A stretch of DNA of 64,000 nt from Bacteroidales bacterium (GCA_965230045.1 OZ245940.1:458900-522899); one strand, 5' to 3'; shown: positions 4,687 to 25,169, numbered from the stretch's first letter. Numbers and translations are program-made. Notes: generated by a model not told the origin, from the sequence alone.

Positions 4687-5358
4687 TCAGCTTTTGATGT
4701 TTTTCAAAGCTTCTTTTTTGCTCAGAGGCTGCAAGGGATGATTTTCCACAAAATCCATAACCATAGCGGGATTTGTTTTGGCATACTCCCGCAGCGACCA
4801 GCCAATGGCCTTCCGGATAAAAAATTCCTTTTCGTGCATCAATGCGCGAATCAGACGGAACAGCAGCTCCGAATCCGTTTTGTCTTTGTATTTCAACTGA
4901 AACAACAAGCAACTTCTTTGCAGCCAAAAATTTCCGGAAGCCATCCACTCTTTGCAAACCGGTTCTATTTGTCCGGGAAATTGTTTCATGTATTCGCCCA
5001 GCGTCCAGGCCGCAATGTAATCTACAGTATCCCACCAGCTTTTTTGCTCAATGCTGTGCCTGATGAGTGCAATTTCATCAACAGTAAAATTTTTCCTGCA
5101 ACGCAAATGCAACTCCATGGCGAAGTACTGATATTCCCTTTCGGCTTTTGCCCAAAGTGCAGGGATCAGCTTTTCGCGCTCATCGCAGGGGAAAGGGTTC
5201 TCTTTCAGGAAATTTTTTTGCAAAAGCCGCCGTTCAGGAGCCTTAATTCCAAAAAAGCCAAACTGATCGCGCAGATAGGCTTTCATTTGGGCAGCCCTGC
5301 TTTCGTCTTTTTGCGCCGCGAGATGATCGCCAAGCTTTTCAATCCAGTTGGTTTTCAT
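4687..5358 (-). CDS. DNA alkylation repair protein (AlkD-like HEAT-repeat family)
   Basis: 223 aa. Contains MKAYLRDQFGFFGIKAPERR and a C-terminal IRKAIGWSLREYAK, which I recognise as family hallmarks. Its start codon directly abuts the stop of the upstream AraC gene (TAA at 5359-5361, ATG at 5356-5358 on the minus strand). Confidence 0.65.
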   Translation of the reverse strand: MKTNWIEKLGDHLAAQKDESRAAQMKAYLRDQFGFFGIKAPERRLLQKNFLKENPFPCDEREKLIPALWAKAEREYQYFAMELHLRCRKNFTVDEIALIRHSIEQKSWWDTVDYIAAWTLGEYMKQFPGQIEPVCKEWMASGNFWLQRSCLLFQLKYKDKTDSELLFRLIRALMHEKEFFIRKAIGWSLREYAKTNPAMVMDFVENHPLQPLSKKEALKNIKS

Positions 5359-5937
5359 TTATAAAAGGCTTTTATTCAAAAAATTAAGCGGATCTTTTTT
5401 GAAATCAGAAACGGAAATCCCGCAAATGCTTTTAAACTGAGTACTGAGGTATTGTACGCTGCTATAGCCATTTATAAAAGCAATTTCGCTCAGGCTCATT
5501 TCATCCCGTATAATCATGTCCTGAACTTTTCGGATCTTTTGATGGATGATGTATTTTTCCAGTGTAATATCTTCTTTTTTCCTGAAAATGGCAGAAATAT
5601 ACTGATAGGACAAATTGAATTTCTGCACCAGGAAATCAGAATTGCGCACCATTGCATTGTCGGTGGTAAGATGCACCAGCTCATGTACCGTGGTTTTGAT
5701 CTGTTCCACCAATTGCTGTTCGCGATCTTTTACCGGCTCAAAACCTTCTTTTTGTATCAGGCTGATGATTTCTTTTTCTGAAATCATGCTTTCATCAAAA
5801 GCAAGCCGGACAAATCCGAGTTTGATCTGCAGAACCTGCACACCGGCTTTTTCCAGCAACAGTTCCAGCAGCCGAACACAGCATTGGCACTGCATATTGC
5901 TGAGGATCAATTCCAGTTCCCTGTTTTCAGAAATCAT
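5359..5937 (-). CDS. AraC-family transcriptional regulator with an N-terminal HMA-like metal-binding domain
   Basis: 192 aa. The N-terminus has NMQCQCC, fitting the MxCxxC metal-binding motif, in a roughly 70-aa domain. The C-terminus has the AraC HTH (SLSEIAFINGYSSVQYLSTQFKSICGISVSDFKK). Confidence 0.7.
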   Translation of the reverse strand: MISENRELELILSNMQCQCCVRLLELLLEKAGVQVLQIKLGFVRLAFDESMISEKEIISLIQKEGFEPVKDREQQLVEQIKTTVHELVHLTTDNAMVRNSDFLVQKFNLSYQYISAIFRKKEDITLEKYIIHQKIRKVQDMIIRDEMSLSEIAFINGYSSVQYLSTQFKSICGISVSDFKKDPLNFLNKSLL

Positions 5938-5942: not shown

Positions 5943-7118
5943 TTATTCTTCATTAAGCAAATAGGACGATTTTATGAAATAAGCGCCGTCCACCACAAAT
6001 ATAGCATTCTGCGGCGGTTTTTCAAGGAAATCAAAAGCGGAATATTTTCCTTCGGTATCGCCTTTTTTGATTTTTAATGACTGAAACCAGCTTCCGTCCT
6101 GTTCTTTCCATTCGGGCAAAGTGTAAAAAACAGTTTCGTGGCCTTTGAAATAAACAAAAGCCGTTTCATCCAAACTTAACTGATCTTTAAGGTCGTAGTG
6201 AATATTGGCGGATACGAACATGCCGGGCAGCAGAATGTTTTCCGGATTGCTGCTTTTTACAATGACTTTCACGGTGCGGTCTTGCTCATTTACCTGTGCG
6301 CCAATGGTTTCAATAGTCCCGTCCATCAATTGTGATTCTTCTGAGCTGCCGGGTTTAAAGCTCACCTGCTGGCCTAAACGGATCAGGTGGATGTCTTTTT
6401 CAAAAACCATAAGCTCAATCAGGACTTCTTCGGTGTTCAGGATTTCAAATATTTCCTCGCCACTTTCTATAAATTCACCCGACTGGATGTTTTCGTTTAT
6501 GTGCAGTTTTCCTCCAATATGTGCGATAAGCGGGTAGGCATCTTTAATATTTCCATCCAGCAATTCCGAAGTATCAATATTCAGGCTCAGCAATTGTTCG
6601 GCCTCTGCTTCACAAATTATATTGAGGGCTGCAAATTGGTTTTTCAAGCTTTCAAGTTCTGTTTTAGCAATCATTTTTTGCGCGGAGAGCTGCTCTTTTG
6701 CGGCAATTTCAATTGCCAGGTTTTTGCGCTTAAAATAGTTTTGTGCAAATAGTTTTTGCATTTCAATAATCTCGGGATTTTGTATATAGGCCAGCACAGC
6801 GCCTTGTTTCACCTTTTGTCCCGGAATTGATTTAAGCCTGATGAGGCGCCCCGGGAAAAGCCCGCTGATCTGTACCTCATTTTGCGGTGGCAAAATCACT
6901 TTTCCCCTTGCCTGAACATGGCCCGAAACCGCTCGGATTTCCGCTTTACCGTATTGAAGACTGGCATTTTTGATTTGCTCGTTATTCATAAAAATCCTGT
7001 TTTCGGTCTTTTCTTCCGAATTTTCCTCAACAGGCTGCGGCGTGTTGCAACTGCTCAAAATAAAAGCAGCAAGAATTAATGTGAGATAATATTTATTCTG
7101 AAACATAACCCAGTTCAT
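5943..7118 (-). CDS. Efflux RND periplasmic adaptor (membrane fusion protein, CzcB-like)
   Basis: 391 aa. Signal/lipobox ILSSC, a coiled-coil hairpin segment and beta-barrel motifs (GQKVKQGAVLAYI). It overlaps the 3' end of the pump gene by 26 nt. The start could instead be M5 at 7106. Confidence 0.75.
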   Translation of the reverse strand: MNWVMFQNKYYLTLILAAFILSSCNTPQPVEENSEEKTENRIFMNNEQIKNASLQYGKAEIRAVSGHVQARGKVILPPQNEVQISGLFPGRLIRLKSIPGQKVKQGAVLAYIQNPEIIEMQKLFAQNYFKRKNLAIEIAAKEQLSAQKMIAKTELESLKNQFAALNIICEAEAEQLLSLNIDTSELLDGNIKDAYPLIAHIGGKLHINENIQSGEFIESGEEIFEILNTEEVLIELMVFEKDIHLIRLGQQVSFKPGSSEESQLMDGTIETIGAQVNEQDRTVKVIVKSSNPENILLPGMFVSANIHYDLKDQLSLDETAFVYFKGHETVFYTLPEWKEQDGSWFQSLKIKKGDTEGKYSAFDFLEKPPQNAIFVVDGAYFIKSSYLLNEE

Positions 7119-10100
7119 TTATGGCGTTAATAAATCCTGATTCGATAATAAGTTTATTGTGTTTTTTAATGGCATCCAGATAATCGGTTTGAAGCTCCAG
7201 CGCTTGCCGGCTTTGTAAAATGAAGGTGCCCAACTCGCCCGATTCTCCGCGAAGGGCATTTTCTGCACTTTGGAATATCTGATTGCCGGAAGGCAGCACG
7301 CTTTCTTCATAAAAGCGCAGTTGTTGCGCAGATATCCGGATTTGTTCTTCAAAAACCCGTTTTTTTCTTTTGGCGTTTTCCCGGAGGCTGTAGTGCTGCA
7401 GTTCGTATTGTTCCTTCATCAGCTTAGAGGCTTTTCTTTTGGCCAAACCGTCCCAGGCCCAGATGGGAAGCTGTATGCCAAATTCCCAGCCGGCAAACCC
7501 GCTCGTTTTGTCAATGCTTTGCGTGAAATAGCCAATGCGGAAAGAGGGCATCATTTCCCAGCTGTTTTGATGGATCAGGTTTTGGCTTTTTTCAATATTT
7601 TTTGCAGAAACCTTCATTGCCGGGCTTTCGGAACCGCCTTCCGGTATCCGTGCAATTGGCTGAAAAATTTCAGGCTGTACAATACTTTCGGGCAGGCTGT
7701 CTGTTCCGCAAATTTGTTGCAAATCTGCAAGCACTACATTTATAGCACTTTCATTATCAAGCAATTGATTTTTTGTTTTAATTGCTGCGGATTGTGCCGA
7801 AAGGTAATCCAGCTCAGGAATTAAACCGGCCTTTGCTTTTTCTTCAGCAACCTTTGCACTGAGCTCAGCAAGACTGTCGAATTTCATCAGCAGGTGGTGA
7901 TAGGCGATGGCGTAGTTGTATTCATTCCATTTTGTCAACAGCTCTTTAATGATGTTGTTGTGCAGCTGAAGGTACTCCAGTTGGGCAATTTCAGTTTCAT
8001 TCTTTAGGATTTTGCCTTTGCTGATATAGCTCATGGGGAAATCAAACGACTGGCTGATCCTTAAATTATAATCATTCAGGCTGCTGTTTATTTGTCCGGT
8101 TTCATAGCTTATTTCCGGTGCCGGAAGTGAAAAAGCAGTGGCTTTGAGATGATCTGCTTTTTCAATTTGGAGTGCTGCCACCTTAAGCATATTATTGTTT
8201 TCCCGTGCCAGGTCAATGAGCTCTTGCCTGCTGTTTTGTGCCTGTGCAGCGGTGCCCATGGCAAGCAATACCGGCAGTATAATTAGCGGCAGTTTGGCTA
8301 TTTTTTTAACAGCAGATGATTGAAAGAGTATATAAATAACCGGCAGCACCACGAGTGTCAGGAAAGTGGAAGTAACAAGCCCGCCGATTACCACGGTAGC
8401 CAGAGGTTTTTGCACTTCTGCGCCCGGAGCGGTGCTCAGCGCCATCGGGATGAATCCCAGTGCAGCAACAGAAGCCGTCATTACAACCGGGCGCAACCTG
8501 AGGCGTGTGCCTTTCATAACCCGCTCATAAATATTGCCCATGCCTTCTTTTTCGAGTTGGTTGTAATAGGATATGAGCACAATTCCATTGAGCACGGCCA
8601 CACCAAAAAGTGCAATAAAACCAACACCCGCCGAAATACTGAAGGGCATATCGCGCAGGTGCAGTGCCCAAATACCGCCGACTGCTGCCAGAGGAATGGC
8701 AGTAAACACCATAAAGGCTTCGCGTAAGCTGTGGAATGTGAAAAACAGGATTAAAAATATGGCCAGAAGCGCTATGGGAACGGCAATGGCGGAGTTTTCG
8801 CGGGCGGCCTGCAAATTCTCAAACTGTCCGCCATAAGTGGTATAATAGCCCGGCGGCAGGCTGAGATTTTTATCCAGTTTGTTTTGTGCTTCCAAAACGA
8901 AGGATTCCACATCGCGCTTCCTGATATTGATGCCAATAGTGATACGCCTTTTGGTGTTGTCGCGGCTGATTTGCATGGGGCCGTTTTCATAGCGGATATC
9001 CGCAACCTGCTGCAATGTGATCAGCTCGCCACCTGAGCGGTTTACACGCAGGTTTTGCAGGCTTTTCAGCTGATTGCGGCATTCTTCGCAAAGGCGCACA
9101 ACAAGCCCAAAACGCCGTTCTGCCTCAAAAACATGGCCTGCGGTCAGGCCGGCATAAGCGGTGCGGATTATTTGGTTTAATTCGTTGATGTTCAAACCAT
9201 ACAAAGCCAGTTTGTCCCTTTTGTAGCGGATTACAATTTGTGGCAGGCCCACAATTTGTTCCACGCGCACATCTCCTGCGCCATCAATTTCCTGAATGAT
9301 CGCAGCAGCATCCTGTGCTTTTTCAAAAAGGACATCCAGGTCTTCGCCGTAAATTTTGACAGCTACATCCGATTTTACACCGGTCATCAGCTCATTGAAG
9401 CGAAGCTGAATGGGTTGTTGGAATTCAAATGCTGCACCGGGAATAACCGATAGTTTTTCTTTCATTTTTTCTACGATTTCTTCCCGTGTTTTGGCTGATG
9501 TCCATTCCTCTTTACGTTTCATGATAATCATGATGTCGGCATCTTCAATGGCCATAGGGTCGGTGGGGACTTCTGCCGTACCGATTTTACTGACCACCTC
9601 TTTTACTTCAGGAAAATTTTCCAGCAGGATTTTTTCGGCTTCTGTTGTGGTGGCCACGCTTTGCTTCAGTGAGGATCCGGGAGCAAGGGTCATTTGCGCG
9701 GCCAGGTCGCCTTCTTCCAGTGTGGGGATAAACTCGCCTCCCATACGGCTGAACGACCAGAAGCTGACCGCAAGTATTGCCAGCACAATCATAAGGACAC
9801 TCCATTTTTTTTGCAGTGATTTGCGCAAGACCGGTTCGTGCATGCGGTTTAGAAAACCAATAATTGAAGCGCTGATCTTGCTGTCGGCATTCACTTTTCT
9901 TTTCAAAACCATTTGCGACATTACCGGAACATAAGTAAGTGAAAGCAGCAGTGCCCCGATTAGCGCGAAGCTGACGGTTTGCGCCATGGGTTTAAACATT
10001 TTGCCTTCAATGCCTGTGAACGTGAGGATGGGGATATACACGATCAGGATGATCAAAACCCCAAAAATAGCCGATTTGCCCACTGACATTCCGGCAATGA

Positions 10101-11412
10101 GGATGTTTTTGTTCATTTCTTCCCCACTGGGTTTTTTGCCCTTTAGGTGGGTTTGGAGCCGGTGGATAATTCCTTCAACAACAATCACCGAGCCGTCCAC
10201 AATCAAACCAAAATCGATGGCGCCTAAGCTCATCAGGTTGGCGGAAACACCAAAAAGGTTCATCATCGAAAAAGCAAAAAGCATGGATAAAGGAATTACC
10301 GAAGCAACAATTAGTCCGGCACGGAAATTCCCCAAAAGGAGTACGAGGATGAAAATCACGATCAATCCGCCTTCGATGAGGTTGCGGCTGACCGTTGCAA
10401 TGGTTTTGTCAATCAGTGCGGAGCGGTCAAGGTATGGATGGATGTGCAAACCTTCGGGCATCATTTTTTCGACTTCGGCCACGCGCTCTTTAACTTTTTT
10501 GAGGGTTTGTGCGGAATTTGCACCCTTGAGCATGAGTGTAATGCCACCAACGGCTTCGCCTTCCCCATTGCGGGTCATGGCACCAAAACGGGGCGGGGCA
10601 CCGATATTTACTTCGGCAACATCGCCAATCAGTATGGGCAGCCCGTTTACTGTTTTTACCAAAATATTGTGGATGTCGTCCTGGTTTTTGATCATGCCTT
10701 CTGCCCTGATATAAAAGGCTTCCGGCCCTTTTTCGATATAGCTTCCACCTGAATTTTGGTTGTTGCGCTCCAGGGCATCGTAAATTTCCAGCAGGCTGAT
10801 GTTCATATCGACAAGCCTGCGCGGCTTAATGCTCACTTCGTACTGTTTTAAAAAACCGCCAAAACTGCTTACTTCCACAATACCCGGAATTCCGGCCAGG
10901 TTCCGTTTTACGATCCAGTCCTGCACGGTGCGCAAATCCATGGCAGTATAAACATCTTTGTAATCGTCATCGGCCTGGATAACATATTGATAAATTTCAC
11001 CCAAACCGGTAGTGACCGGCATCATCTCCGGCGTGCCATATCCTTCGGGAATTTCGGCTGAGGCCAATTGAATTTGTTCACTTACCATTTGCCGTGCCAG
11101 ATAAGGATCAATGCGGTCTTTGAAAACAATGGTAACTACTGATAAACCGTATCGGCTTATCGAACGTATTTCCGTAACATCCTGGATGTTGGCCATTGCA
11201 ATTTCAACAGGATAAGTGATCAATTGCTCCACTTCCTGAGGGGACAGCGATGGGGCGCTGGTAATGACCTGAACCTGGTTGTTGGTGATATCCGGAACCG
11301 CATCGAGCGGAAGGTTAAAAAAGTTGTAAATGCCCCAAAAAGTCATGGCAACCGTTGCCAATAGTATAAGCAGCTTGTTTTGGAGCGAGAAATTTATAAT
11401 TTTCCCAGCCAT
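7093..11412 (-). CDS. CzcA/CusA-family heavy-metal RND pump fused in frame to a TolC-like outer-membrane-factor domain
   Basis: Uninterrupted 1439-aa ORF. Residues 1 to about 1030 are a 12-TM HME-RND pump (PLDAVPDITNNQVQV, repeated TM bundles). A signal-peptide-like linker follows (KKIAKLPLIILPVLLAMGTAAQAQ). The last roughly 380 aa carry two TolC-type repeat halves. Confidence 0.8.
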   Translation of the reverse strand: MAGKIINFSLQNKLLILLATVAMTFWGIYNFFNLPLDAVPDITNNQVQVITSAPSLSPQEVEQLITYPVEIAMANIQDVTEIRSISRYGLSVVTIVFKDRIDPYLARQMVSEQIQLASAEIPEGYGTPEMMPVTTGLGEIYQYVIQADDDYKDVYTAMDLRTVQDWIVKRNLAGIPGIVEVSSFGGFLKQYEVSIKPRRLVDMNISLLEIYDALERNNQNSGGSYIEKGPEAFYIRAEGMIKNQDDIHNILVKTVNGLPILIGDVAEVNIGAPPRFGAMTRNGEGEAVGGITLMLKGANSAQTLKKVKERVAEVEKMMPEGLHIHPYLDRSALIDKTIATVSRNLIEGGLIVIFILVLLLGNFRAGLIVASVIPLSMLFAFSMMNLFGVSANLMSLGAIDFGLIVDGSVIVVEGIIHRLQTHLKGKKPSGEEMNKNILIAGMSVGKSAIFGVLIILIVYIPILTFTGIEGKMFKPMAQTVSFALIGALLLSLTYVPVMSQMVLKRKVNADSKISASIIGFLNRMHEPVLRKSLQKKWSVLMIVLAILAVSFWSFSRMGGEFIPTLEEGDLAAQMTLAPGSSLKQSVATTTEAEKILLENFPEVKEVVSKIGTAEVPTDPMAIEDADIMIIMKRKEEWTSAKTREEIVEKMKEKLSVIPGAAFEFQQPIQLRFNELMTGVKSDVAVKIYGEDLDVLFEKAQDAAAIIQEIDGAGDVRVEQIVGLPQIVIRYKRDKLALYGLNINELNQIIRTAYAGLTAGHVFEAERRFGLVVRLCEECRNQLKSLQNLRVNRSGGELITLQQVADIRYENGPMQISRDNTKRRITIGINIRKRDVESFVLEAQNKLDKNLSLPPGYYTTYGGQFENLQAARENSAIAVPIALLAIFLILFFTFHSLREAFMVFTAIPLAAVGGIWALHLRDMPFSISAGVGFIALFGVAVLNGIVLISYYNQLEKEGMGNIYERVMKGTRLRLRPVVMTASVAALGFIPMALSTAPGAEVQKPLATVVIGGLVTSTFLTLVVLPVIYILFQSSAVKKIAKLPLIILPVLLAMGTAAQAQNSRQELIDLARENNNMLKVAALQIEKADHLKATAFSLPAPEISYETGQINSSLNDYNLRISQSFDFPMSYISKGKILKNETEIAQLEYLQLHNNIIKELLTKWNEYNYAIAYHHLLMKFDSLAELSAKVAEEKAKAGLIPELDYLSAQSAAIKTKNQLLDNESAINVVLADLQQICGTDSLPESIVQPEIFQPIARIPEGGSESPAMKVSAKNIEKSQNLIHQNSWEMMPSFRIGYFTQSIDKTSGFAGWEFGIQLPIWAWDGLAKRKASKLMKEQYELQHYSLRENAKRKKRVFEEQIRISAQQLRFYEESVLPSGNQIFQSAENALRGESGELGTFILQSRQALELQTDYLDAIKKHNKLIIESGFINAINELGYVSE

Positions 11413-11469: not shown

Positions 11470-11847
11470 TCAGAGTAACAGAGGATGGATACCTTTTAAA
11501 GTAGCAGCAGGAACCAGGGTTTTATGTGTGTCATAGCCTGATTTTTTCAGAGGATTTTTTTCACAGATATAAAATAAGCATAAAAAATCGGGCGCGCTTT
11601 GTTTGTCCGGTTCCGATAATATTGATGGGTTGCCGGGCAGGATATCTTCAAGATGATCGGGTCCGGGGTTAAAATGCGCAAAAACATCTGTTGCACCGGC
11701 ATTCATTTCCGGGCTTTGCCAAAATGTACTGTCATAACCGGCTCCCTCCTCATGCGAATGCGGAATTGATTGATGCAGCAGTATAATTGAGATACTGATG
11801 AACATCATAATCAGCGCCGGTTTCCTGATATTTTTGTTTTGTGGCAT
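11470..11847 (-). CDS. Small membrane-anchored His-rich hypothetical protein heading the metal-efflux operon
   Basis: 125 aa. One N-terminal hydrophobic segment is followed by HQSIPHSHEE. It sits 57 nt upstream of the pump gene on the same strand. I recognise no family. Confidence 0.4.
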   Translation of the reverse strand: MPQNKNIRKPALIMMFISISIILLHQSIPHSHEEGAGYDSTFWQSPEMNAGATDVFAHFNPGPDHLEDILPGNPSILSEPDKQSAPDFLCLFYICEKNPLKKSGYDTHKTLVPAATLKGIHPLLL

Positions 11848-12057
11848 GATCTTTAAACAGAGAACCGGCAGTAATGTTTATTGGGGAGAAGCTTCCTTTC
11901 TTTGTAGCTTTGGGCTAAACTTGAATAATTTACGGCCAAAGCAGGCCTTCAATGCAATAAAAAAGCGAAAATCCGTTTATTTCTTAGTATAATTGTAGCA
12001 TCAAAGCGCTCCTTATCGGAAGTGTTAATGCTTTATTCAAATGAAACATATTTTTTT

Positions 12058-14364
12058 ATGAAATCCATATTTATCTCCCTTATTTCGTTACTGATATCAT
12101 TTACAGCAATCGCACAAGAAGTAGCAATCGGACAATGGCGGGATTATTTGCCCTATCGTGAAGGTACAAATGTAGCCGTTACTCCTGATGGGGTTTATAG
12201 CGCAACACCATATAGTTTGTTTTTTTATGATACGGAAGAAAACAGTATAGAGCGCTATTCAAAAATTAATGGACTGAGCGAAAGTTTTATCAGTACAATC
12301 CGTTATAACGATTATAACAACACTTTGCTGATTGCCTATCAAAATACTGATATTGATCTGATTACCCCTAATGGTATTGTGAACATCCCGGACATAAAAA
12401 TATATTCGATTTTGGGAAAAAAGACCATTAACGACATTATGTTTATTGATAACCTGGCTTATCTTTCCTGTGGTTTTGGAATTGTGGTTTTGGATATGGA
12501 CCGTCAGGAGATTTATGACACTTATTACATCGGGCCGGAAGGAAAACAATTAGATGTGCGCAGCCTGTGCGTAAGCGAAGACTCTTTTTATGCTGCCACG
12601 GAAGACGGTATTTATACCGCGGAACGTGAAAACCCGCAACTGGCGTTTTATGAAAACTGGTCAAAAGACACAACTTATCCCTATCCGAATGATATTGTGA
12701 GCAATATTGTATTTTTTGAGAACAATCTTTTTGCCAGCACCGGAAACGAAGATTTCACGCATGATACCATTTTCAGGCGTAGCTTAGAGGTTAACACCTG
12801 GGAGGCTTTTATGCCGGCGGCAAATTATTCCTGCTACTCTATGGGTGTTTCGGAAGATCATTTATTGATTTCTTTTTCGTTTCAGGTACGGGTTATCAAC
12901 AGCAACTTAGAGCAGGAATATACTATTGGAAAACCGTCAGGGCGGGCTATTTATCCGCGCGATGCCGAAATGAGCAATAAATTTGTTTGGGTTTCCAATC
13001 ATAACAGCGGTTTGGTTAAAGTTAGCGAAGGAGGAGGTTATGGTGAGTTTATTGCGCCAAACGGCCCGTACAGCCAAAAAGTGTTTTCAATGGAATATAC
13101 TTCTGCCGGCCTGTGGGTTTCTTCCGGTGGCCATAATGCGCAATGGGGCAACCTTTATCAGGGAGAAGGGGTCTATCATTTTGATGGCACAAGCTGGGAC
13201 AATTACAATAAAACAAACACTTCTGCTTTTGACAGCATTACCGATCCCGTTGTTGCGGCAACTAATCCGGCGCAAAATAAAACCTATATCGGAACCTGGG
13301 GCAAAGGCATTATGCAGTTCGAAAATGGAGAAGTAACCAACGTATATTACTCAAATAACAGTAGTCTTGCCGGAATGCCTTCTTGGGAATCTTTTGTGGC
13401 CGTTGGCGGGCTCGCCTTCGATATTGAAGGAAACCTCTGGGCTGTCAATACAAGCACAACGAACATCCTTTCTGTGCTGAAAACAGATGGAACCTGGCAG
13501 GCATACAACCTGGGTGGTTCCGCAAGTAATATTGATGTTGATAAGCTGATCATCGATCAAAATGACCAGAAATGGATTCGGATGCGTGCCGATCATTCCG
13601 TATTGGTTTTTGATGAATCGCAGCCTGTTGGGAACCAATCCAAAATTCTTACCAGCAGCACAGGCAACGGAAATATCCCCGGAAATAAAGTTTATGCCAT
13701 TGAAGAAGATAAAGACGGGGAAATCTGGTTGGGAACTGATGAAGGTATTGCAGTAATTTATAGCCCGTGGAATGTTTTCCAAGGCGGAGATTATGATGCC
13801 CAGCGCATTAAAGTTGAATGGGAAGGATATGTGCAGTATTTGCTCGAAACAGAAGTTATTACTTCAATATGTGTTGATGGAAACAACCAGAAATGGATCG
13901 GAACCGACCGCTCGGGCGTCTTTTTGCTTTCGGCAGATGGCACCGAACAAATCCATCATTTTACTGCCGAAAACAGCCCGCTTTTCTCAAATTCTATTGT
14001 TGATATTGCCATAAACGGCGAAAACGGTGAAGTTTATATCGCCACCGATAAAGGAATTATCAGTTATAAAGCCAAAGCAACCGAAGGCGGTGATACCAAT
14101 GAAAATGTTTATGCTTATCCGAACCCTGTGAATATCGGCTATGCCGGATCCATTGCGGTAAAAGGGCTTGTTGAAAATGCTTATATAAAAATAACCGACA
14201 TCAGCGGAAACCTGGTTTATTCAGGTCGTGCCGAAGGTGGACAGGCCGTTTGGAACGGAAAAACAATGAATGGCGATGACGTGCATACCGGTGTTTACCT
14301 GGTGTTTATTACCGATCAGGAAGGTGAAGAAACCATGGTAACAAAAATCATGTTCCTGAAATAA
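12058..14364 (+). CDS. Double beta-propeller (two-component-regulator-propeller-like) protein with a T9SS C-terminal sorting domain; PorZ-like
   Basis: The ORF opens at 12022, but the signal peptide MKSIFISLISLLISFTAIAQE begins at 12058. It has repeated propeller blades and a C-terminal CTD (YAYPNPV...IKITDISGNLVY...GVYLVFI...KIMFLK). Size and architecture match PorZ as I remember it. Confidence 0.55.
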   Translation: MKSIFISLISLLISFTAIAQEVAIGQWRDYLPYREGTNVAVTPDGVYSATPYSLFFYDTEENSIERYSKINGLSESFISTIRYNDYNNTLLIAYQNTDIDLITPNGIVNIPDIKIYSILGKKTINDIMFIDNLAYLSCGFGIVVLDMDRQEIYDTYYIGPEGKQLDVRSLCVSEDSFYAATEDGIYTAERENPQLAFYENWSKDTTYPYPNDIVSNIVFFENNLFASTGNEDFTHDTIFRRSLEVNTWEAFMPAANYSCYSMGVSEDHLLISFSFQVRVINSNLEQEYTIGKPSGRAIYPRDAEMSNKFVWVSNHNSGLVKVSEGGGYGEFIAPNGPYSQKVFSMEYTSAGLWVSSGGHNAQWGNLYQGEGVYHFDGTSWDNYNKTNTSAFDSITDPVVAATNPAQNKTYIGTWGKGIMQFENGEVTNVYYSNNSSLAGMPSWESFVAVGGLAFDIEGNLWAVNTSTTNILSVLKTDGTWQAYNLGGSASNIDVDKLIIDQNDQKWIRMRADHSVLVFDESQPVGNQSKILTSSTGNGNIPGNKVYAIEEDKDGEIWLGTDEGIAVIYSPWNVFQGGDYDAQRIKVEWEGYVQYLLETEVITSICVDGNNQKWIGTDRSGVFLLSADGTEQIHHFTAENSPLFSNSIVDIAINGENGEVYIATDKGIISYKAKATEGGDTNENVYAYPNPVNIGYAGSIAVKGLVENAYIKITDISGNLVYSGRAEGGQAVWNGKTMNGDDVHTGVYLVFITDQEGEETMVTKIMFLK

Positions 14365-14585: not shown

Positions 14586-17500
14586 ATGAAACTCTTCAGG
14601 CAAAAAAAGGGAAGGTCGATCAGCAGGGCATATATTACCAACAGCCTGCTTATGGTGTCAATAGCAATAGGGGCTATGGGCGCGTATTGGTTGATCCGCG
14701 AATGGAGCGATTTTTCTGAAAACGCTGAAAGCATTAAAGAAGAGTATTTCCGGGATCAGAAGCAAATCCTCAAAAGTCAGGTAGATAACACACTCAGTTA
14801 TATCAATATTGCCGCTCAGTCCGTCGAAGGTCGGATGAAAAATGAGCTCAAAAGCCGTGTTTATGAAGCATGGTCTATTGCCAACAGCTTATATCAGACC
14901 AATAAAGGAAAACGATCCGATGATGAAATAAAAGAAATGATAAAACAGGCTTTGCGTCCTGTCCGCTTCCTTAATGGAAGGGGTTATTTCTTTGCGACAT
15001 CACTGAAAGGTGTTGAAATCTTGCATCCTGTTTTCCCCGAATTTGAAGGAAAAAATATTATTGACCTTCAGGACGGGCATGGCAATTATGTAATTCGCGA
15101 TGAAATTAATATTGTAAGTACAAAAGGGGAAGGCTTTATTTTGGATTATTGGCCAAAACCCAACGGAAACCCGGATTCATTATACCCAAAAACCTCTTTT
15201 GTAAAATTGTTCGAACCCTTTAACTGGTATATTGGCACTGGCGAATACATGGATAATATTGAGGCGGATGTGCAGGAAGAAGTCATCGAAAAAATAAGCC
15301 GCACAAAATTTGGCGAAGAAGGATACATTTTTGTAAACACCTATGATGGGTATGCTGTAATAATCGACTCCGATAAGCTGAAAAGGGGTGCATATGTTTG
15401 GGATGTTACGGACCCTAATGGTGTTAAAGTAATTCAGGAAGAATATAAAATTGTAAATACACCCGAAGGAGGCGGCTTTATTGAGTATAGCTGGAAAAAA
15501 AGAAACAGCGACATAATAGCACCGAAAATATCATATATAGCCGGTTATCCCAAATGGCAGTGGATGATTGGGGCAGGCGTTTATGTTGATGATATTCAGC
15601 AATTAGTCGATAATGAACGCCAGGAATTAATGAGCAAGACATTGATCCAGATTATGGAGATCATTTTTATCCTGGTCCTGACATGGATTGGTGTGTATTT
15701 GCTGCTCCAGCGGACAACCACTTTAATGAGAGAGAATTTTTCGAGCCTGATACATAGTTTTCAAAATGCTATATTGGCAGGGAAGCCTACTGCGAAAAAT
15801 GATTATCTCTTTTCGGAGTATAATACAATGGCCAGTTCATTGAACCAGGTAATTTCCGAACGTAGCGAAGCCCAAAAAGCACTGGAATTGCAAAAAGTAC
15901 GTTTTGAACAGCTTTTTTTGCATAATCCCGATGGGATTGCCCTTACGGATTCCAATGGCATTATCCATAAAGTGAATCAGGCGTTTACTGATATTTTTGG
16001 GTATGGGGAAGATGCTGTTGGGAAAAACTTAAAATCGTTATTGGTTTCAGACAGCTTAAAAGAGGAATCCATTAATTATTTCAATCAGGCAGTAAAAGGA
16101 AAATCCATTCAAAACGAAACCAAAAGAAGCCATAAAGAAGGACGACTGATAGAAGTCTCTGTTGTAAGTACCCCTATTCGTATCAAGAATAATACTATTG
16201 GGATTTATTGGGTATATCGCGATATCAGCGAACGCAAAAAAGCCGAACAGCTGCTAAGGGAAGAAGAGAAACGCTGGCGCGACCTTTTCAATAACCTGCC
16301 CGGTGGCAGTTTTGCGTACAATAAGGATTATGATATTGTTGATGCTAATGATGCATTGAGCGAATTGACGAATTATTCAAAAGCCGAACTTCTCGGGATG
16401 AAGGTAGTGCAAATAACCAATTTGAGCAAAGAAGAGTTAATTTGGGCCGATAGCCTCAATCAAGGTAAAAACAATATTGAATCAGTCTTGAAAAACCGCG
16501 ATGGTAATGAATTCCCTATTGTAAAGAGCCTCCTCAAGGTGAACTTGATTGATCACGATATTATCACCTGTAATTTTCAGGATATCACCAGTTTGAAATT
16601 ATATGAAGAGCAGTTGAAATCTGCCCGAGACCAGGCCACCGAAGCCGATAAACTGAAAACAGTTTTCCTGGCCAATATGAGCCACGAAATCCGTACGCCC
16701 ATGAATGCTATCCTTGGATTTTCCGAATTGCTGCGCGACGATGGACTGGATAAAGAATCCCGGGATCAATCACTCGATATTATCACCAAAAACGGCCAAA
16801 GCCTCATGAAGCTTATCGATGATATTATTGATGTTGCCAAAATAGAAGCCGGACAGGTGAAACTAATAAAATCAGAAGAAGAACTGGGCGAAATCCTTGA
16901 TGATGTTTATGCTACTTGCCGCCAAGATTTTGACCGACGAAACAAAAAGCATATCGAACTGCGTTTACAGATACCGCCACATCTTAAAAAACTGCATTTT
17001 GAAACAGACCGGTACCGCCTCAGGCAGGTTTTGATCAACCTGCTCACAAATGCCGTAAAATTTACTGATAAAGGCTTTATCGAAATCCGTATTGAAGAAC
17101 AAAAAACCAATGAGCTTACTTTTCATGTGACCGATACGGGCACGGGAATACCGGCCGAAAAACTGGAGATGATTTTTACACGGTTCCGTCAGGTAGAAGA
17201 AACTTTGGGAAGAAATACAGGCGGCGCAGGATTAGGGCTGACCATTTCCAAAAGTATTGTCGAATTGCTGGGCGGACGAATATGGGCCGAATCCGAAATG
17301 GGAAAAGGAAGCTGTTTCAGCTTTACGCATCCGCATAATGGCTTTATCCCTTTGCAAGACAAGCAAACCCAAACGCAAAAGCCACAAGAAGGCCCGGTGA
17401 TTTTCGAAGGAAAGAAAATACTCATTGTCGAAGATGTAATGTCGAATTTTGTTTTTCTGAAAACCGCACTCCGTAAAAATAAAGTGGAAGTGCAGCATGC

Positions 17501-17765
17501 TGTCAGTGGTATAGAAGCTGTAGAAGCAGTGCGCAATGAGTATTTCGATTTGATTTTAATGGACATTCAACTGCCCGAGATGGACGGTTATACAGCAACC
17601 CGTGAAATATTGAAAATAAAGCCGGAAATACCCGTGGTGGCGCAAACTGCCTACGCAATGTCGGGCCAGTCCCAAAAATGCAAAGAAGCCGGTTGCGTGG
17701 ATTACCTTGCAAAACCTATACGTACTGAACAGCTGGTTAAGGTGTTGCAGAAATATCTCGGATAG
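14586..17765 (+). CDS. Hybrid sensor histidine kinase/response regulator with a periplasmic Cache-like domain and PAS domains
   Basis: 1059 aa. Two TM segments flank a roughly 300-aa extracytoplasmic domain, followed by two PAS-like modules. H-box FLANMSHEIRTPMNAI, N box LLTNAVKFT, G boxes DTGTGIP/GAGLGL, and a C-terminal receiver (ILIVEDV...DLILMDIQLPEMDG...K). Confidence 0.85.
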   Translation: MKLFRQKKGRSISRAYITNSLLMVSIAIGAMGAYWLIREWSDFSENAESIKEEYFRDQKQILKSQVDNTLSYINIAAQSVEGRMKNELKSRVYEAWSIANSLYQTNKGKRSDDEIKEMIKQALRPVRFLNGRGYFFATSLKGVEILHPVFPEFEGKNIIDLQDGHGNYVIRDEINIVSTKGEGFILDYWPKPNGNPDSLYPKTSFVKLFEPFNWYIGTGEYMDNIEADVQEEVIEKISRTKFGEEGYIFVNTYDGYAVIIDSDKLKRGAYVWDVTDPNGVKVIQEEYKIVNTPEGGGFIEYSWKKRNSDIIAPKISYIAGYPKWQWMIGAGVYVDDIQQLVDNERQELMSKTLIQIMEIIFILVLTWIGVYLLLQRTTTLMRENFSSLIHSFQNAILAGKPTAKNDYLFSEYNTMASSLNQVISERSEAQKALELQKVRFEQLFLHNPDGIALTDSNGIIHKVNQAFTDIFGYGEDAVGKNLKSLLVSDSLKEESINYFNQAVKGKSIQNETKRSHKEGRLIEVSVVSTPIRIKNNTIGIYWVYRDISERKKAEQLLREEEKRWRDLFNNLPGGSFAYNKDYDIVDANDALSELTNYSKAELLGMKVVQITNLSKEELIWADSLNQGKNNIESVLKNRDGNEFPIVKSLLKVNLIDHDIITCNFQDITSLKLYEEQLKSARDQATEADKLKTVFLANMSHEIRTPMNAILGFSELLRDDGLDKESRDQSLDIITKNGQSLMKLIDDIIDVAKIEAGQVKLIKSEEELGEILDDVYATCRQDFDRRNKKHIELRLQIPPHLKKLHFETDRYRLRQVLINLLTNAVKFTDKGFIEIRIEEQKTNELTFHVTDTGTGIPAEKLEMIFTRFRQVEETLGRNTGGAGLGLTISKSIVELLGGRIWAESEMGKGSCFSFTHPHNGFIPLQDKQTQTQKPQEGPVIFEGKKILIVEDVMSNFVFLKTALRKNKVEVQHAVSGIEAVEAVRNEYFDLILMDIQLPEMDGYTATREILKIKPEIPVVAQTAYAMSGQSQKCKEAGCVDYLAKPIRTEQLVKVLQKYLG

Positions 17766-20612: not shown

Positions 20613-21899
20613 TTAGTTTTCGGTCAGCAAGCCACCGCTGAGCCGCATGAGTTCCAGATGCGATTCAATGAGGTTGTAACGGCTTTGCAGCTCGGCTATT
20701 GCCGCATTCAGATAAGTAAGTTGTACATCGCGGAAATTGAAGGAATTAATGGCGCCGCTGCGGTACTTTTGTTCCGAAATTTCCAGATTGAGCTTAGCAC
20801 TTTCCAGCCGCTCGCGTGCTACGTTCAGCAGCTCTTTGCGGTTGTTGTACAAATCAAGCTGGTTGAGCATTTGTAAACGCAGGCTGTGTCGCATCTCGGT
20901 AATTTGTATCAGTCCCGCGGCTTCTTTCAGGATTTCCTGTTCGATGGCACCACGGATGTTTCCTCCGTTGTAAAGCGTATAGGAGAGCGAAAAGGTCGCA
21001 TAAACACCAAGCGCATCCGACCAGCTCCCGTCCACATTTTTGGGTTTGGAATAGCTTTCCGAATAATCGGCGCCGGCATTGAGGCTAAGCCAGGGATAAA
21101 GCTGTGATTTGCTCAGGCCGATATTGTTTTCCAGGATTTTTTGGTTGATATACTTATTTCGCAAAGAGCGGTTGCTGCTGAAAAGCGCATTGATGAGCGA
21201 ATCTTCGCTGAAATCAAAAGCCGGGCTTTCCAGCTGTCCATCGGCTGAATACAGATTTCCGGTAGAATCTGCCAGCAAAAGGCTGAGTGTTCGGTTGGCG
21301 CGTTTCAGGAAATATTTTTGTTGTATATAATTTGATGAATCGCTCAAATAAGCAATTTTGGCCTGAAGCACATCATATGTTACGGCTCCGCCCAGCTCTT
21401 TTTTGTGCTGGAAATAGGCATAACGGTCGCCGGATAAATCCATGAGTTCGGTCAGCACTTCGAGTTGCTTTTTTTGCAAAAGGATGTTGTACCAGGCAAG
21501 GCTAATGGCCTGAATGCTGTTTTCGACCAGAATGGCCGTATTGCCCTGGCTGAGTTCGTAAATCCGGTCGTAATTATCTTTGCGGATTTGTGCCGAAAAG
21601 CCCCCGAAAAGCGTCCAGTTGAGGTTTACATTTGGTGTGAAGCCGTGTGAGCGCACAGAGGCCGTATTGTCGTCAAAACGGTTGCTCTGGCGCAAACCCA
21701 GGGTGATGATGGGCAATCCGCCGGCAGTGGCCAGGCCAAGGTCCCATTCCGCTACTTCTTCCTGAAGCAGGGAAACCCGGATGCCATAATTTTTTTCCAG
21801 GCCGGTATTGATGGCTTCATCAAGGCTGAGCGATTGCTGTGCGTTCAGCTGAAGCGCAACAAAGCCTAAAATCAAGATTAATCCAATTGTTTTCTTCAT
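20613..21899 (-). CDS. TolC-family outer membrane efflux protein
   Basis: 428 aa. Signal peptide (LNAQQ), two internal repeat halves and coiled-coil heptads typical of outer-membrane factors. Confidence 0.8.
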   Translation of the reverse strand: MKKTIGLILILGFVALQLNAQQSLSLDEAINTGLEKNYGIRVSLLQEEVAEWDLGLATAGGLPIITLGLRQSNRFDDNTASVRSHGFTPNVNLNWTLFGGFSAQIRKDNYDRIYELSQGNTAILVENSIQAISLAWYNILLQKKQLEVLTELMDLSGDRYAYFQHKKELGGAVTYDVLQAKIAYLSDSSNYIQQKYFLKRANRTLSLLLADSTGNLYSADGQLESPAFDFSEDSLINALFSSNRSLRNKYINQKILENNIGLSKSQLYPWLSLNAGADYSESYSKPKNVDGSWSDALGVYATFSLSYTLYNGGNIRGAIEQEILKEAAGLIQITEMRHSLRLQMLNQLDLYNNRKELLNVARERLESAKLNLEISEQKYRSGAINSFNFRDVQLTYLNAAIAELQSRYNLIESHLELMRLSGGLLTEN

Positions 21900-21920
21900 T
21901 TTTTCCTTCCTTTGGATGGA

Positions 21921-24900
21921 TTATTCAATTTTCTTTTTTTGGTAAATAACCGCTTTTTCAACTTCTTCCGCTTCCATTTTTCGGCCGTACCACCAACCGA
22001 AAACGAGCCTGCGCAAATCATTGAGCGCCAGGATAAGCACAGGGAAAAACATCAGTATGAAGCCTGTACCGATCATCACGCCATAAGCGAGCGAAACAGC
22101 CATAGGCACCAGAAACTGTGCCTGGAAACTGGTTTCGAGGATAATCGGATAAAGCCCCACAGTGGTCGTTATGGTAGTCAGCATAATGGGGCGGAAACGG
22201 GATATCCCGGCATTATATAAAGCGTCTTTTACTTTCATGCCTTCGCGCAGGTTGCTGTTGTACTTCTGCAGAAACACCACAGCATCGTTAATGATGACCC
22301 CCGATAAGGCCACCATGCCCCAGGCGCTGAGAATGGAAACCGGAATGCCTTCGATTCCATGGCCCCAAAGCGACCCCAGCCAACCCAAGGGAATCATCAT
22401 CAGGATAATTAAACCCTGGCTAAAGGATTTAAAATGGATCATGATAATGACGACCATCAGCAGAAAAGCGATGGAGTAATATTTCCGCAGGTCGCCCATA
22501 GTTTCTTCACTGTCGCGCTGCTGGCCTTGGAACATAACATTTACGCCCGGATATTTTGCTTGCAGTTTGGGAACGATTTCGCTGCTGATGCGCTCCAGAA
22601 TGGGCGGAACAGGTTCGTAAGGATCCACCAAATCGGCATCAATACGCACTTCGCGCTGCATGTTGAAACGTTTTATGTTTACCGGGCCGCGTTCAATTTT
22701 GTAGGTCACCAGTTCGCTGAGCGGATATTCGCCTCTTGGTGTTTTGATTTTCATGCTTTCCATTTGTCCGATGCTCATGCGTCCCTGCTCGGGATAGCGC
22801 ACCCACACACGGATTTCGTCTTTGCCTGATTGCATGCGCTGCGCCTGGCCTCCAAAAAAGCCCTGACGCACCTGCTGACTGATGTCGTTGAGGTTCAAAC
22901 CCAGAAAATAAGCTTTGGGTTTGAGCTCCAGACGTACTTCGCGCTTTCCGATGGCGTTGTTGTCGGTAACATCTTTCAGGGCTTCAAAAGATTTCATTTC
23001 GGCGATCATCAGTTCTTTTGCTTTTTTCAACTGATCCAGATCTTTGCCCAAAAGGCTCACCGAAACCGGCGAACCAAAACGGTTGCGTCCGCCAATAGAG
23101 AATTTTTCGGCCTTTTCAACCAAACCAATTTTCTTACGGATACGGTCGGCAATCTGGAAACTGGAAAGCGGGGCGTCTTCCATATCGCGCAGCAAAACAA
23201 AGATATTTCCTGCATGGGCACCGTTTTCCTGACCTTCGAAAGCATTGCCGAGATTCTGGAAGGTATAATCCACAAAATTGGCGGTATCATTAAATTCTTC
23301 CATCAAATCCTGGTTTACTTCCCAAACTTTTTGTTCGAAATAATCCAGAAATTCTTTGGTTTGTTTTTCTCCGCTTCCGGGTGTAAAAGCGACATTGATG
23401 TTAAAACTGTCGAAAGGGATGGAAGGGAAAAATGTGCTTTGGATAATGCCGCCGCCAAACATTCCTGCCGTGATGATAATCAAGGCGATGGGAGAAAACA
23501 CATAAATCCAGCGCCAGTGCATCACATGGCGGAGCAAATGGCCGTATATCCGGTCGCGCATCAGGGCGATGAATTTATCGAGGTAGTGGCGGATGTTGCG
23601 GCTTTCCTGCTCGTGCACACGTGAACGCAACACATGGCGGCTTCCTAAGTGGGCAGGAAGCACGAAAAAGGCTTCGAGCAGCGAAAATCCCAGACTGGCA
23701 ATAACCACAAAGGCCATCTCGTACATAAATTCCATGCGGCCTTCTGCAACCAAAAGGGGAGAGAAGGCGATCATAGTGGTCAAAACACTGGTTACAACGG
23801 CAGGCAAAACTTCCATCGTGCCATCTACTGCCGCCTTTTTCGGACTTTTGCCTTTTTCAAAATGAGAGTAGATGTTTTCGGCGATTACAATTCCGTCATC
23901 TACCAAAATCCCAATAACCAAAATCATCCCAAAAAGGGAAATCATATTGATGGTAACGCCTGACATGCTGGCAATTACAAACATCCCGAGGAAGGAGCTT
24001 GGAATGCCCCAGGCCACCCAAAGCGAAAGCCGGATGTTGAGGAAAAGCCCTAAGGCAATTAAAACCAGCAACAAGCCGATACCGCCATTATTGTAGAGCA
24101 GGTGCAGGCGGCTTTTGAGGAGTTCCAGAAAATCATAAGTGATTTCCAGTTTTACATGATCGTGATCATCGTTGAATTTTTTTACATAATCGTTCAGGAA
24201 AACAGAGATCGCTTTCAGGTCTTCTGTGCCCAGTTTCTGGATATTAAAACTAACGGATTTTTGTCCGTTCATGGTCGATCCGCTGGGCACATCGGCGAAT
24301 TTCATTTTCACAGTGGCCACATCGCGAATAGTAAGCATGCCGCCATCTTCCTGGGCTCGGATTACAATATCACCGATATCGTCGGGATCAACCGAGCGGT
24401 TGCGGGAGCGGATCAGGATTTCTTCATCTTCGGAGCGTATGGTACCGCCCGAAATATCGCGGTTGTTCAATGCAATGGCGCGGCTGATTTCGTCAAAAGT
24501 GAGGCCATAGCGCATCAGGTCTTCTTCGCTGGCTTCCACCGAGATTTCTAAAGCCGGATAGCCGCCTAAACTTACCTGCGAAATGACTCCGGAAGCCAGA
24601 AGGTCGTCTTCAATATCCTGGGCCATATCTTTAAGCGTCATTAAATCCACATCGCCGCTCAGGCCAACAAATGCAGCCATAGTAACTGCCCGTTGTTTGA
24701 AAATTACAGGTTTTTCGGCGTCAATCGGGAAAGAGCTGATCCCGTCCACGGCATTTTTGACTTCCGTGAGGGTTTCGTCGATATCGTATTCTCCTGTGGT
24801 AGTTATGGTTACGCGGGCAAAGTTTTCCGATGATGTACTGTTGATTTCCTTGATGCCCACCAAACCGCGCACGGCCATTTCCACACGGGTGGTGATGCCT

Positions 24901-25085
24901 TCTTCCATTTCCTTGGGCGATGCCCCGGGATAGGCCACCGAAACAATGATGTCGGTGGTGCTGCGCTCCGGAAAAAAGGACATATGCATATTGTTGAACG
25001 CAAATCCCCCGGCAATCAGCATGAAAGCGATAATCATGTTGGCATAGAAGGGATACTTAACAAAAGTACTGACCAGATTTCTCAT
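21921..25085 (-). CDS. AcrB/AcrD/AcrF-family RND efflux permease
   Basis: The ORF opens at 25148, but the typical RND N-terminus MRNLVSTFVKYPFYANMII starts at the ATG at 25085. About 1054 aa with the 12-TM, two-large-loop architecture. Confidence 0.85.
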   Translation of the reverse strand: MRNLVSTFVKYPFYANMIIAFMLIAGGFAFNNMHMSFFPERSTTDIIVSVAYPGASPKEMEEGITTRVEMAVRGLVGIKEINSTSSENFARVTITTTGEYDIDETLTEVKNAVDGISSFPIDAEKPVIFKQRAVTMAAFVGLSGDVDLMTLKDMAQDIEDDLLASGVISQVSLGGYPALEISVEASEEDLMRYGLTFDEISRAIALNNRDISGGTIRSEDEEILIRSRNRSVDPDDIGDIVIRAQEDGGMLTIRDVATVKMKFADVPSGSTMNGQKSVSFNIQKLGTEDLKAISVFLNDYVKKFNDDHDHVKLEITYDFLELLKSRLHLLYNNGGIGLLLVLIALGLFLNIRLSLWVAWGIPSSFLGMFVIASMSGVTINMISLFGMILVIGILVDDGIVIAENIYSHFEKGKSPKKAAVDGTMEVLPAVVTSVLTTMIAFSPLLVAEGRMEFMYEMAFVVIASLGFSLLEAFFVLPAHLGSRHVLRSRVHEQESRNIRHYLDKFIALMRDRIYGHLLRHVMHWRWIYVFSPIALIIITAGMFGGGIIQSTFFPSIPFDSFNINVAFTPGSGEKQTKEFLDYFEQKVWEVNQDLMEEFNDTANFVDYTFQNLGNAFEGQENGAHAGNIFVLLRDMEDAPLSSFQIADRIRKKIGLVEKAEKFSIGGRNRFGSPVSVSLLGKDLDQLKKAKELMIAEMKSFEALKDVTDNNAIGKREVRLELKPKAYFLGLNLNDISQQVRQGFFGGQAQRMQSGKDEIRVWVRYPEQGRMSIGQMESMKIKTPRGEYPLSELVTYKIERGPVNIKRFNMQREVRIDADLVDPYEPVPPILERISSEIVPKLQAKYPGVNVMFQGQQRDSEETMGDLRKYYSIAFLLMVVIIMIHFKSFSQGLIILMMIPLGWLGSLWGHGIEGIPVSILSAWGMVALSGVIINDAVVFLQKYNSNLREGMKVKDALYNAGISRFRPIMLTTITTTVGLYPIILETSFQAQFLVPMAVSLAYGVMIGTGFILMFFPVLILALNDLRRLVFGWWYGRKMEAEEVEKAVIYQKKKIE

Positions 25086-25169
25086 TATTTTGTGTGTTTC
25101 CTGATGTGATGTTCGTTTGTTCAATTTGTGCCCCAAAATCAGGCACAATCTTTTAACATTTGATTGCTT

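Follow-up and report, generated by a model that had tools for sequence, protein, structure and literature searches.

The 64,000-nucleotide (nt) stretch OZ245940.1:458900-522899 of an uncultured Bacteroidales bacterium (GCA_965230045.1), referred to below as the window, carries on its minus strand an uninterrupted open reading frame (ORF) that runs from ATG to stop at 7093..11412 and encodes 1439 amino acids (aa), as is evident from both the ORF list and the translation. This ORF is a complete CusA/CzcA-type resistance-nodulation-division (RND) pump in frame with a complete TolC/CusC-type outer-membrane factor (OMF), the pump occupying residues 1 to ~1032 and the OMF residues ~1059-1439, and the two are joined by a short segment with the anatomy of a secretory signal peptide (Table 1). 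An initial annotation had proposed just such an arrangement, namely one ORF without a stop in which a CzcA-type pump ending around residue 1030 is followed by a retained signal-peptide-like segment and a full TolC-like OMF domain, and in all of these respects it is borne out by the analyses described here.

The pump boundary is set by two family profiles: Pfam ACR_tran matches residues 5-1031 over its full length (E 1.7e-284), and NCBIfam TIGR00914 (CusA/CzcA) matches residues 1-1032 with 1194.5 bits against a cut-off of 701.45. The RND part also aligns end to end with solved pumps, in a single alignment with ZneA (4k0e; residues 10-1032 to 10-1017 of 1045, 695 bits) and likewise with CusA (5-1029 to 12-1044, 625 bits), and is therefore complete, with nothing missing. 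On the basis of these alignments, it is co-linear with the solved members in their architecture of 12 transmembrane (TM) helices and two large periplasmic loops. TM4 carries the motif DFGLIVDGSVIVVEG (residues 400-414) in the pattern DFG...DGS...VEG, with D, D and E all present; compared with the classical proton-relay motif, reportedly DFGx3DGAx3VEN (Nies 2003), the Ala position is occupied by Ser and the Asn position by Gly. The region of TM12 contains a block, ATVVIGG...LP..Y, that is invariant across the alignments, and the end of this helix lies on the cytoplasmic side in solved RND structures. By family assignment, the substrate is probably a metal cation, and, since ZneA scores higher than CusA in the alignments, divalent cations are hinted at.

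Behind the linker, Pfam OEP matches as two repeats from residue 1063 (E 9e-25, 88 bits against a cut-off of 22). No match to the OMF domain was found in the PDB by phmmer at E 1e-3, and a profile search of the same database was swamped by RND residues in the alignment rows, so that fold comparison was used instead. An AlphaFold2 (AF2) monomer model of the OMF, built on a 65-sequence alignment (predicted local distance difference test (pLDDT) 92, predicted template modelling score (pTM) 0.87), has the form of a TolC-type protomer with strands at 44-51, 57-67, 234-244 and 247-258, long helices at 70-138 and 264-332, and paired shorter helices. Foldseek relates this model to OprM, CmeC, TolC, SilC, CusC, OprN and VceC (TM-score 0.72-0.83, E 5e-15 to 1e-13), the structural alignments to these solved OMFs showing 12-17% identity. 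In its predicted fold, the OMF half is a full TolC-type protomer that includes the beta-barrel strands, an endowment that would be sensible only if the domain gets to the outer membrane.

The linker, VKKIAKLPLIILPVLLAMGTAAQAQ, comprises residues 1035-1059 (nt 8236-8310); the initial annotation had picked out the right segment, its span of nt 8236-8315 being in error by a 5-nt slip. Its n-, h- and c-regions (Table 1) lead to a predicted signal-peptidase-I cut after A1058 (AQA/Q1059, the slash marking the cut), between nt 8239 and 8238, with an alternative after A1056. In an alignment of 128 non-redundant fusions with only ~30-35% identity over the junction and the OMF, signal-peptide features are kept in the linker although its sequence varies freely. 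The net charge of the n-region is at least +2 in 125 of them, a hydrophobic core (12-aa window, mean Kyte-Doolittle value at least 1.88) is found in all 128, and a small residue at -1 followed by Gln at +1 (small/Gln) comes shortly after this core in 127, the small residue being Ala (100), Gly (16), Ser (9) or Cys (2). At -3 stands A, V, I, S, L, G or T, and the composition at -3 and -1 resembles that of stand-alone OMF signal peptides. Q1059 is conserved in at least 90% of an 80-sequence alignment and is among the few such positions outside the folded domains. Since the cleavage motif occurs in 19.6% of 21-residue windows in the OMF body, its presence in 127/128 fused homologues argues that the resemblance to a signal peptide is not due to chance. 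Judged from its residue pattern, then, a Sec/signal-peptidase-I signal peptide has been retained as the linker, in agreement with the initial annotation, which had noted the likeness and had suggested examining the AQA site across orthologues. It starts, however, at residue 1035, behind 12 TM helices and not at an N-terminus; it is therefore internal, and may work like a canonical signal peptide without being a canonical member of that class.

Table 1. Coordinates of the fused gene, its parts and the adjoining genes (positions in the window)
Feature	Position	Strand	Remarks
Fused RND-OMF gene	7093..11412 (including stop codon)	minus	1439 aa, 159.5-kDa precursor; Pfam ACR_tran and OEP (twice)
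Heavy-metal-efflux RND pump domain	8311..11412	minus	residues 1-1034; 12 TM helices by homology
TM12 of the RND domain, ATVVIGGLVTSTFLTLVVLPVIYILF	8320..8412	minus	residues ~1001-1031; helix 142-172 of the AF2 construct 860-1439
n-region of the internal signal peptide, VKKIAK	8293..8310	minus	residues 1035-1040; three Lys; predicted cytoplasmic
A7 tract (T7 on the plus strand)	8301-8307	minus	encodes Lys-Lys of the n-region; ordinary homopolymer
h-region, LPLIILPVLLAM	8257..8292	minus	residues 1041-1052; prospective 13th membrane helix, N-in/C-out
c-region, GTAAQA	8239..8256	minus	residues 1053-1058; Ala at -3, Ala at -1, Gln at +1
Mature OMF (predicted)	7096..8238	minus	residues 1059-1439, 381 aa, 43.3 kDa; N-terminal Gln, then pyroglutamate, predicted
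CzcB/CusB-type periplasmic adaptor (membrane fusion protein, MFP)	5943..7118	minus	391 aa; Pfam HlyD_D23, HlyD_3; TIGR01730, TIGR00999
AraC-type HTH regulator	5359..5937	minus	192 aa; Pfam HTH_18, HTH_AraC; 5 nt after the MFP gene
Small upstream ORF	11470..11847	minus	125 aa; one hydrophobic segment and His-rich stretches

Comparison with other genomes shows the fusion to be genuine and widely distributed in Bacteroidota; an assembly artefact is not the explanation. The intact 1439-codon ORF is present in three related Bacteroidales genomes (L001-L003), at 97.0, 95.4 and 91.2% nt identity over the gene. Full-length distant orthologues (L004-L009) are uninterrupted fusions in three species of Pontibacter, two of Flavobacterium and a metagenome-assembled genome (MAG) of the Crocinitomicaceae, with sizes of 1446-1461 aa in the Pontibacter and Flavobacterium isolate genomes and 1451 aa in the MAG; a short contig from the Saprospiraceae holds a fused C-terminal part. 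PF00873 and PF02321 occur together in 120/120 best database matches to the last 476 aa, whose source names include Bacteroidales, Chitinophagaceae/Chitinophagales, Flavobacterium, Paludibacter, Pontibacter and 'Candidatus Kapabacteria' and which are annotated merely as 'CusA/CzcA family heavy metal efflux RND transporter'. The initial annotation had pointed to a stop and start at the junction in orthologues as the sign of two separate genes; none has them, the halves being fused in 10/10 loci as well as in all of these best matches. At a related locus on a 2.75-Mb metagenome contig (L011, 3266-7659), two frameshifts and an in-frame stop interrupt the orthologous fusion around residues 835-890, probably through long-read indel error or because it is a pseudogene. 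The database also holds recurrent 552-aa proteins consisting of half an RND pump and an OMF. A natural split within the pump was considered for these and rejected: given the frameshifts and stop in L011, the one such locus examined, and given that these gene calls all begin at the same conserved Met in ...AVPMSAIGG, the 552-aa class is a product of gene calling or assembly, or else of pseudogenes. A full-text search of the literature found neither a description of a natural RND-OMF or CzcA-CzcC fusion nor proteomic evidence for one, and the sections seen of the reviews PMC8277102 and PMC4446572 make no mention of a natural RND-OMF fusion.

The residues around the predicted cut match a general habit of the phylum. 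On average, 71% of signal-peptidase-I substrates in Bacteroidetes expose Gln at +1, which is cyclised to pyroglutamate (the Q-rule; PMC5837995). Mass spectrometry of Tannerella forsythia identified pyroGlu-QEVLTLDQCR after ...FCAMA/Q in a stand-alone 'OM Efflux protein' (Tanf_07615; PMC5837995 supplement), a layout that is the same as AQA/QNSRQELIDLAR in the fusion; this supplement contains no peptide from a fused pump, the OMF there being stand-alone only. In the window, a heuristic scan finds an A/Q end in 7/8 apparent signal-peptidase-I signal peptides. By this pattern, the small/Gln site of the fused linkers is a signature of the Bacteroidetes Q-rule. Stand-alone OMFs of Bacteroidota, such as Tanf_07615 and the product of the window gene at 20613..21899, have the same signal peptide ending in A/Q, with the first OMF helix a few residues further on; in these, however, the signal peptide is N-terminal and is discarded, whereas in the fusion it comes after 1034 residues of a polytopic membrane protein and would be left attached to the pump as helix 13.

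The fused gene is accompanied by that of the third component of an efflux system. The adaptor gene, whose product has a lipoprotein signal (ILSS/C), overlaps the 3' end of the fusion by 26 nt; the order of fusion and then MFP is kept in L004-L009, and an adaptor follows the fusion in every orthologous locus. The AraC-type regulator gene is possibly co-transcribed with the MFP gene. It is followed, with almost no spacing, by a gene for a DNA-alkylation-repair-family protein (4687..5358, minus strand), and these two genes are syntenic only in the close relatives L001-L003. On the other side, every fused pump gene examined (window, L004-L009 and L011) is directly preceded on its strand by a small ORF of 107-162 aa, the product of which is hydrophobic at its N-terminus and has His- or Cys/His-rich motifs. 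The 125-aa ORF of the window has no Pfam or NCBIfam match, and the upstream ORFs of L006 and L011 are likewise without a family; the upstream ORF of Flavobacterium matches DUF6660 (PF20365; E 5e-12), as does that of Pontibacter at a value below the Pfam cut-off (E 1.7e-4), and the position of the window's ORF is that of the DUF6660 genes in other fused operons. These small proteins may be a conserved metal-binding or regulatory partner. Further upstream, two divergent genes on the plus strand encode a PorZ-like type-IX-secretion protein that has a C-terminal sorting domain (12022..14364) and a large hybrid sensor kinase (14586..17765; dCache, PAS, HisKA, HATPase and receiver domains).

Unfused relatives of the two halves indicate how the fusion could have arisen. 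When the OMF domain alone was searched against 1.84 billion representatives, the matches were a mix of ~400-aa stand-alone proteins, in which the match follows an A/Q signal peptide, and ~1440-aa fusions, in which it begins at ~residue 1070. The window itself contains an unfused pair in the same order on the minus strand, an RND gene at 21921..25148 (1075 aa) being followed 21 nt later by the OMF gene at 20613..21899, the product of which begins MKKTIGLILILGFVALQLNA/QQSLSLDEAI (signal peptide ...LQLNA/QQ). No MFP gene adjoins this pair (20613-25148), its flanks being a NUDIX gene and the gene of a 410-aa protein with a weak CehA/McbA-like match. A third stand-alone OMF-like protein (419 aa, 42830-44086, minus strand, the 3' end being taken from the ORF length), known from the heuristic signal-peptide scan alone, begins MRKLLIFLSLFPFLALQA/QQQFSLDSLMSLAVENYPK and has the same layout from signal peptide to first helix as the fusion linker. 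In 29 of the 128 fused linkers, the n-region starts with Met, 0-2 residues and K/R, as in ...KPMKRKLKK; this Met is consistent with a relic of the OMF start codon, and could allow internal initiation in those lineages. The simplest history would be that an RND gene and the OMF gene next to it lost the stop and spacer that separated them, while the signal peptide of the OMF was retained. A nearest-neighbour analysis of fused and stand-alone OMF domains found 23 fused domains with a stand-alone neighbour and 43 cases of the reverse, so that the classes are mixed and one fusion event is not separated from many; the 'stand-alone' class is also contaminated by truncated gene calls.

The initial annotation had located an A7 run at the junction (T7 at 8301-8307), exactly where it lies, and had drawn from it the possibilities of an assembly error and of uncoupling by slippage. 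Both are unsupported, because the fusion is conserved, the tract recurs in relatives, no start for the OMF is available and A/T runs are common. The A7 tract is identical in L001-L003, which were assembled independently and show synonymous differences on both of its flanks; runs of 7 or more A or T number 54 in the window (43% GC), three of them inside the fused ORF; and the junction homopolymers of L004-L009 reach at most 4-6 nt. With A6 in silico, the pump ends at ...AVKK-TAG, and with A8 a stop comes 32 codons later. The stretch from TM12 to the hydrophobic core contains no ATG, GTG or TTG in the OMF frame, either in the window or in L001-L003 (the codon of V1035 is GTT), so that a separate OMF gene would lack its signal peptide with either tract length. 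A miscounted homopolymer that joined separate czcA and czcC genes would be an error of the kind that long-read metagenome assemblies do carry, and the L011 pump gene has two frameshifts and a stop; yet the idea is next to impossible given the same tract in three other genomes, the isolate genomes of Pontibacter and Flavobacterium that are fused without a homopolymer, the fusion in every one of the best matches, and the split versions that leave the OMF without a start codon ahead of its signal peptide. Programmed or stochastic slippage, by which a 1-nt deletion would give an RND-only product, could make use of the stops that A6 and A8 bring into frame right after the tract or 32 codons on, and the tract is conserved in four genomes. 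These are too close, however (91-97% nt identity), for the conservation to be a sign of selection; the tract simply encodes Lys-Lys, and the short junction homopolymers of distant orthologues mean that it is not a feature of the family. No stimulatory element was seen, no search aimed at one having been made, and slippage appears extremely improbable. We also regard it as highly unlikely that a start codon within the 3' part of the RND coding sequence serves, in addition or instead, for separate translation of the OMF. The Met in 29/128 homologues does stand at the expected ancestral OMF start, and TM12 of the window gene has in-frame GTG codons (V1022, V1023), but starts in TM12 would put a second hydrophobic stretch before the signal peptide, possible start codons are missing from the rest of the junction in the window and three relatives, and 99/128 homologues have no relic Met, with the reading frame open in all, which would be unneeded if the OMF were made separately.

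The initial annotation had left a choice between cleavage of the linker by signal peptidase and a permanent tether. Cleavage is strongly favoured by the conserved A/Q, the spacing typical of stand-alone OMFs and the short linker, and tethering is disfavoured by geometry. Very probably, we infer, the product is a membrane polyprotein that is cut into a ~116-kDa pump with 13 helices and a ~43-kDa OMF. In an AF2 model of residues 860-1439, TM12 (1001-1031) is followed by a hydrophobic helix (1041-1057), a three-residue break (1058-1060) that falls exactly at A/QN, and an OMF helix starting at 1061; confidence in this model is lowest in the linker, where the pLDDT of 56-72 contrasts with values above 90 to either side. 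From the +1 Gln to the first conserved Leu of the OMF, the homologues have a median of 10 residues (range 7-29), and in stand-alone homologues the N-terminal signal peptide ends in A/Q at the same distance from the first conserved OMF helix. The OMF model has 36 helical residues between its N-terminus and the first barrel strand, and a long helix of 69 residues; at 1.5 Å per residue, the N-terminus would be separated from the barrel above it by ~54 Å and from the periplasmic tip below it by ~50 Å. Midway up a ~100-Å alpha-barrel, it could not sit a few residues from the inner membrane in an assembled pump. If it were tethered there, the lower half of the alpha-barrel would be in or below the inner membrane, and the beta-barrel would be closer to this membrane than the height of the pump's periplasmic domain, which is ~70 Å in AcrB and CusA. 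By this modelled geometry, an uncleaved tether misfits a canonical tripartite pump and is disfavoured.

A tether, in which the linker would serve permanently as a 13th TM helix and keep the OMF-like domain on the pump in a non-canonical envelope-spanning or periplasm-only architecture, is accordingly very unlikely in our estimation, although it is in keeping with the single ORF and with the helical form of the hydrophobic segment in the AF2 model. It would have to accommodate a barrel tip that crosses the inner membrane and a beta-barrel only ~55 Å above it, with ~3 non-helical residues between the hydrophobic helix and the first OMF helix. Moreover, a mere anchor needs no small/Gln motif, yet 127/128 have this motif, and its spacing to the OMF fold is constant; none of the beta-barrel strands has been lost; and the sequence of the h-region is not conserved, which implies no specific packing contact. 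It is the combination of the geometry, the retained barrel strands and the selection for an A/Q site that favours cleavage. Several points nevertheless weigh on the other side. The hydrophobic-plus-c segment after the last K/R has a median of 20 residues in the fusions and 17 in stand-alone OMFs, and this greater length is also compatible with a stable anchor. The cleavage site was called by our own heuristics and not by a dedicated signal-peptide predictor, and the motif search required a small residue at -1 and Gln at +1, which leaves the frequency of the motif and the residues at -3 as the only independent observations; shared ancestry of the homologues means, in addition, that 127/128 are not 127 independent events. 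The geometry uses helix lengths of a predicted monomer and general dimensions of solved pumps instead of measured coordinates, efficient cutting by signal peptidase I behind 12 TM helices is presumed for Bacteroidota, and the full-text literature search found no experimental evidence of cleavage (proteomics, western blot or structure) for any member.

If the precursor is cleaved, its biogenesis could proceed as follows. The ribosome would make a 159.5-kDa chain, the 12 CzcA/ZneA-like RND helices of which enter the inner membrane and leave the chain end in the cytoplasm. The internal signal peptide, with its Lys-rich n-region, core of 12-17 residues and A-Q-A, would then insert N-in/C-out as helix 13 and thereby thread the 381-residue OMF domain into the periplasm, where signal peptidase I would cut at AQA/Q1059 or possibly after A1056. 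The products would be a pump of ~116 kDa, with the signal peptide retained as helix 13 at its C-terminus, and a free OMF of ~43 kDa. The N-terminal Gln of the latter would probably be cyclised to pyroglutamate, as in other exported proteins of Bacteroidetes. The free OMF would trimerise, enter the outer membrane and dock via the CzcB-like adaptor onto the pump, to give an ordinary tripartite metal-efflux machine. The fusion would fix the synthesis of pump and channel at 1:1, which matches the 3:6:3 stoichiometry described for tripartite pumps (PMC4446572). More generally, it seems rather likely that in this phylum an outer-membrane beta-barrel protein is routinely made behind a polytopic inner-membrane protein, with co-translational translocation, release at an internal Q-rule site, a spent signal peptide that becomes helix 13, 1:1 synthesis and perhaps assembly in cis; no such polyprotein route was found in the literature for any outer-membrane protein (OMP) or tripartite pump.

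The components themselves are ordinary. Tripartite pumps of the heavy-metal-efflux (HME) RND family are 3:6:3 assemblies that export metals driven by protons, and the CzcCBA, ZneCBA and CusCBA systems of Proteobacteria have the same three components as the locus described here, a CusA/CzcA pump, a CzcB/CusB adaptor and an OMF of TolC/CusC fold. In these systems, however, the components are encoded by separate genes (in czc, in the order C-B-A), whereas here pump and OMF share one ORF in the order A::C and then B, the OMF signal peptide is internal and the OMF sequence is very divergent. Of the two nearest precedents in mechanism, one is the cytochrome b-c1 precursor FbcH of Bradyrhizobium japonicum, reportedly described by Thöny-Meyer and colleagues in about 1989-1991, which is reported to combine a polytopic inner-membrane protein, an internal signal peptide and an exported domain, and to be processed into two subunits of one complex at 1:1. 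Both FbcH products reportedly stay at the inner membrane, whereas an OMF released from the fusion must reach the outer membrane. The other is found in polyproteins of Flaviviridae and bunyaviruses, which are described (PMC7601889, PMC5402940) as having internal signal peptides behind membrane segments that are cut by the host signal peptidase, the cut signal peptide staying as a C-terminal anchor of the upstream product. That enzyme is the signal peptidase of the eukaryotic endoplasmic reticulum and there is no homology, so the likeness is an analogy only; neither these polyproteins nor FbcH are known to deliver a product to a bacterial outer membrane. Natural uncleaved fusions among RND or tripartite parts include SecDF of Thermus and fused dimeric adaptors such as DSY0927, according to PMC8277102 and PMC4446572, respectively. 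In those cases, the fused parts share a compartment and stay joined.

What is unusual is not the families, which are ordinary HME-RND, MFP and OMF members, but a covalent RND-OMF precursor with an internal signal peptide, a form of this familiar machine that is widespread yet apparently uncharacterised. In the textbook view, a tripartite efflux pump is encoded by three genes, and debate continues on how the channel is matched and dosed to its pump; in a large group of Bacteroidota, pump and channel are one translation product. Entries of ~1,440 aa that are named 'CusA/CzcA family' hide an OMF, so that they will be missed when OMFs or metal-efflux operons of Bacteroidota are counted in genome surveys. 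The usual route of an OMP is post-translational; if the fusion is cleaved, this OMP precursor would follow a 12-helix membrane protein into the Sec channel while still being translated. Cleavage would also make the fusion a natural bacterial polyprotein that supplies two different membranes, and would leave the RND pump with a leftover 13th helix.

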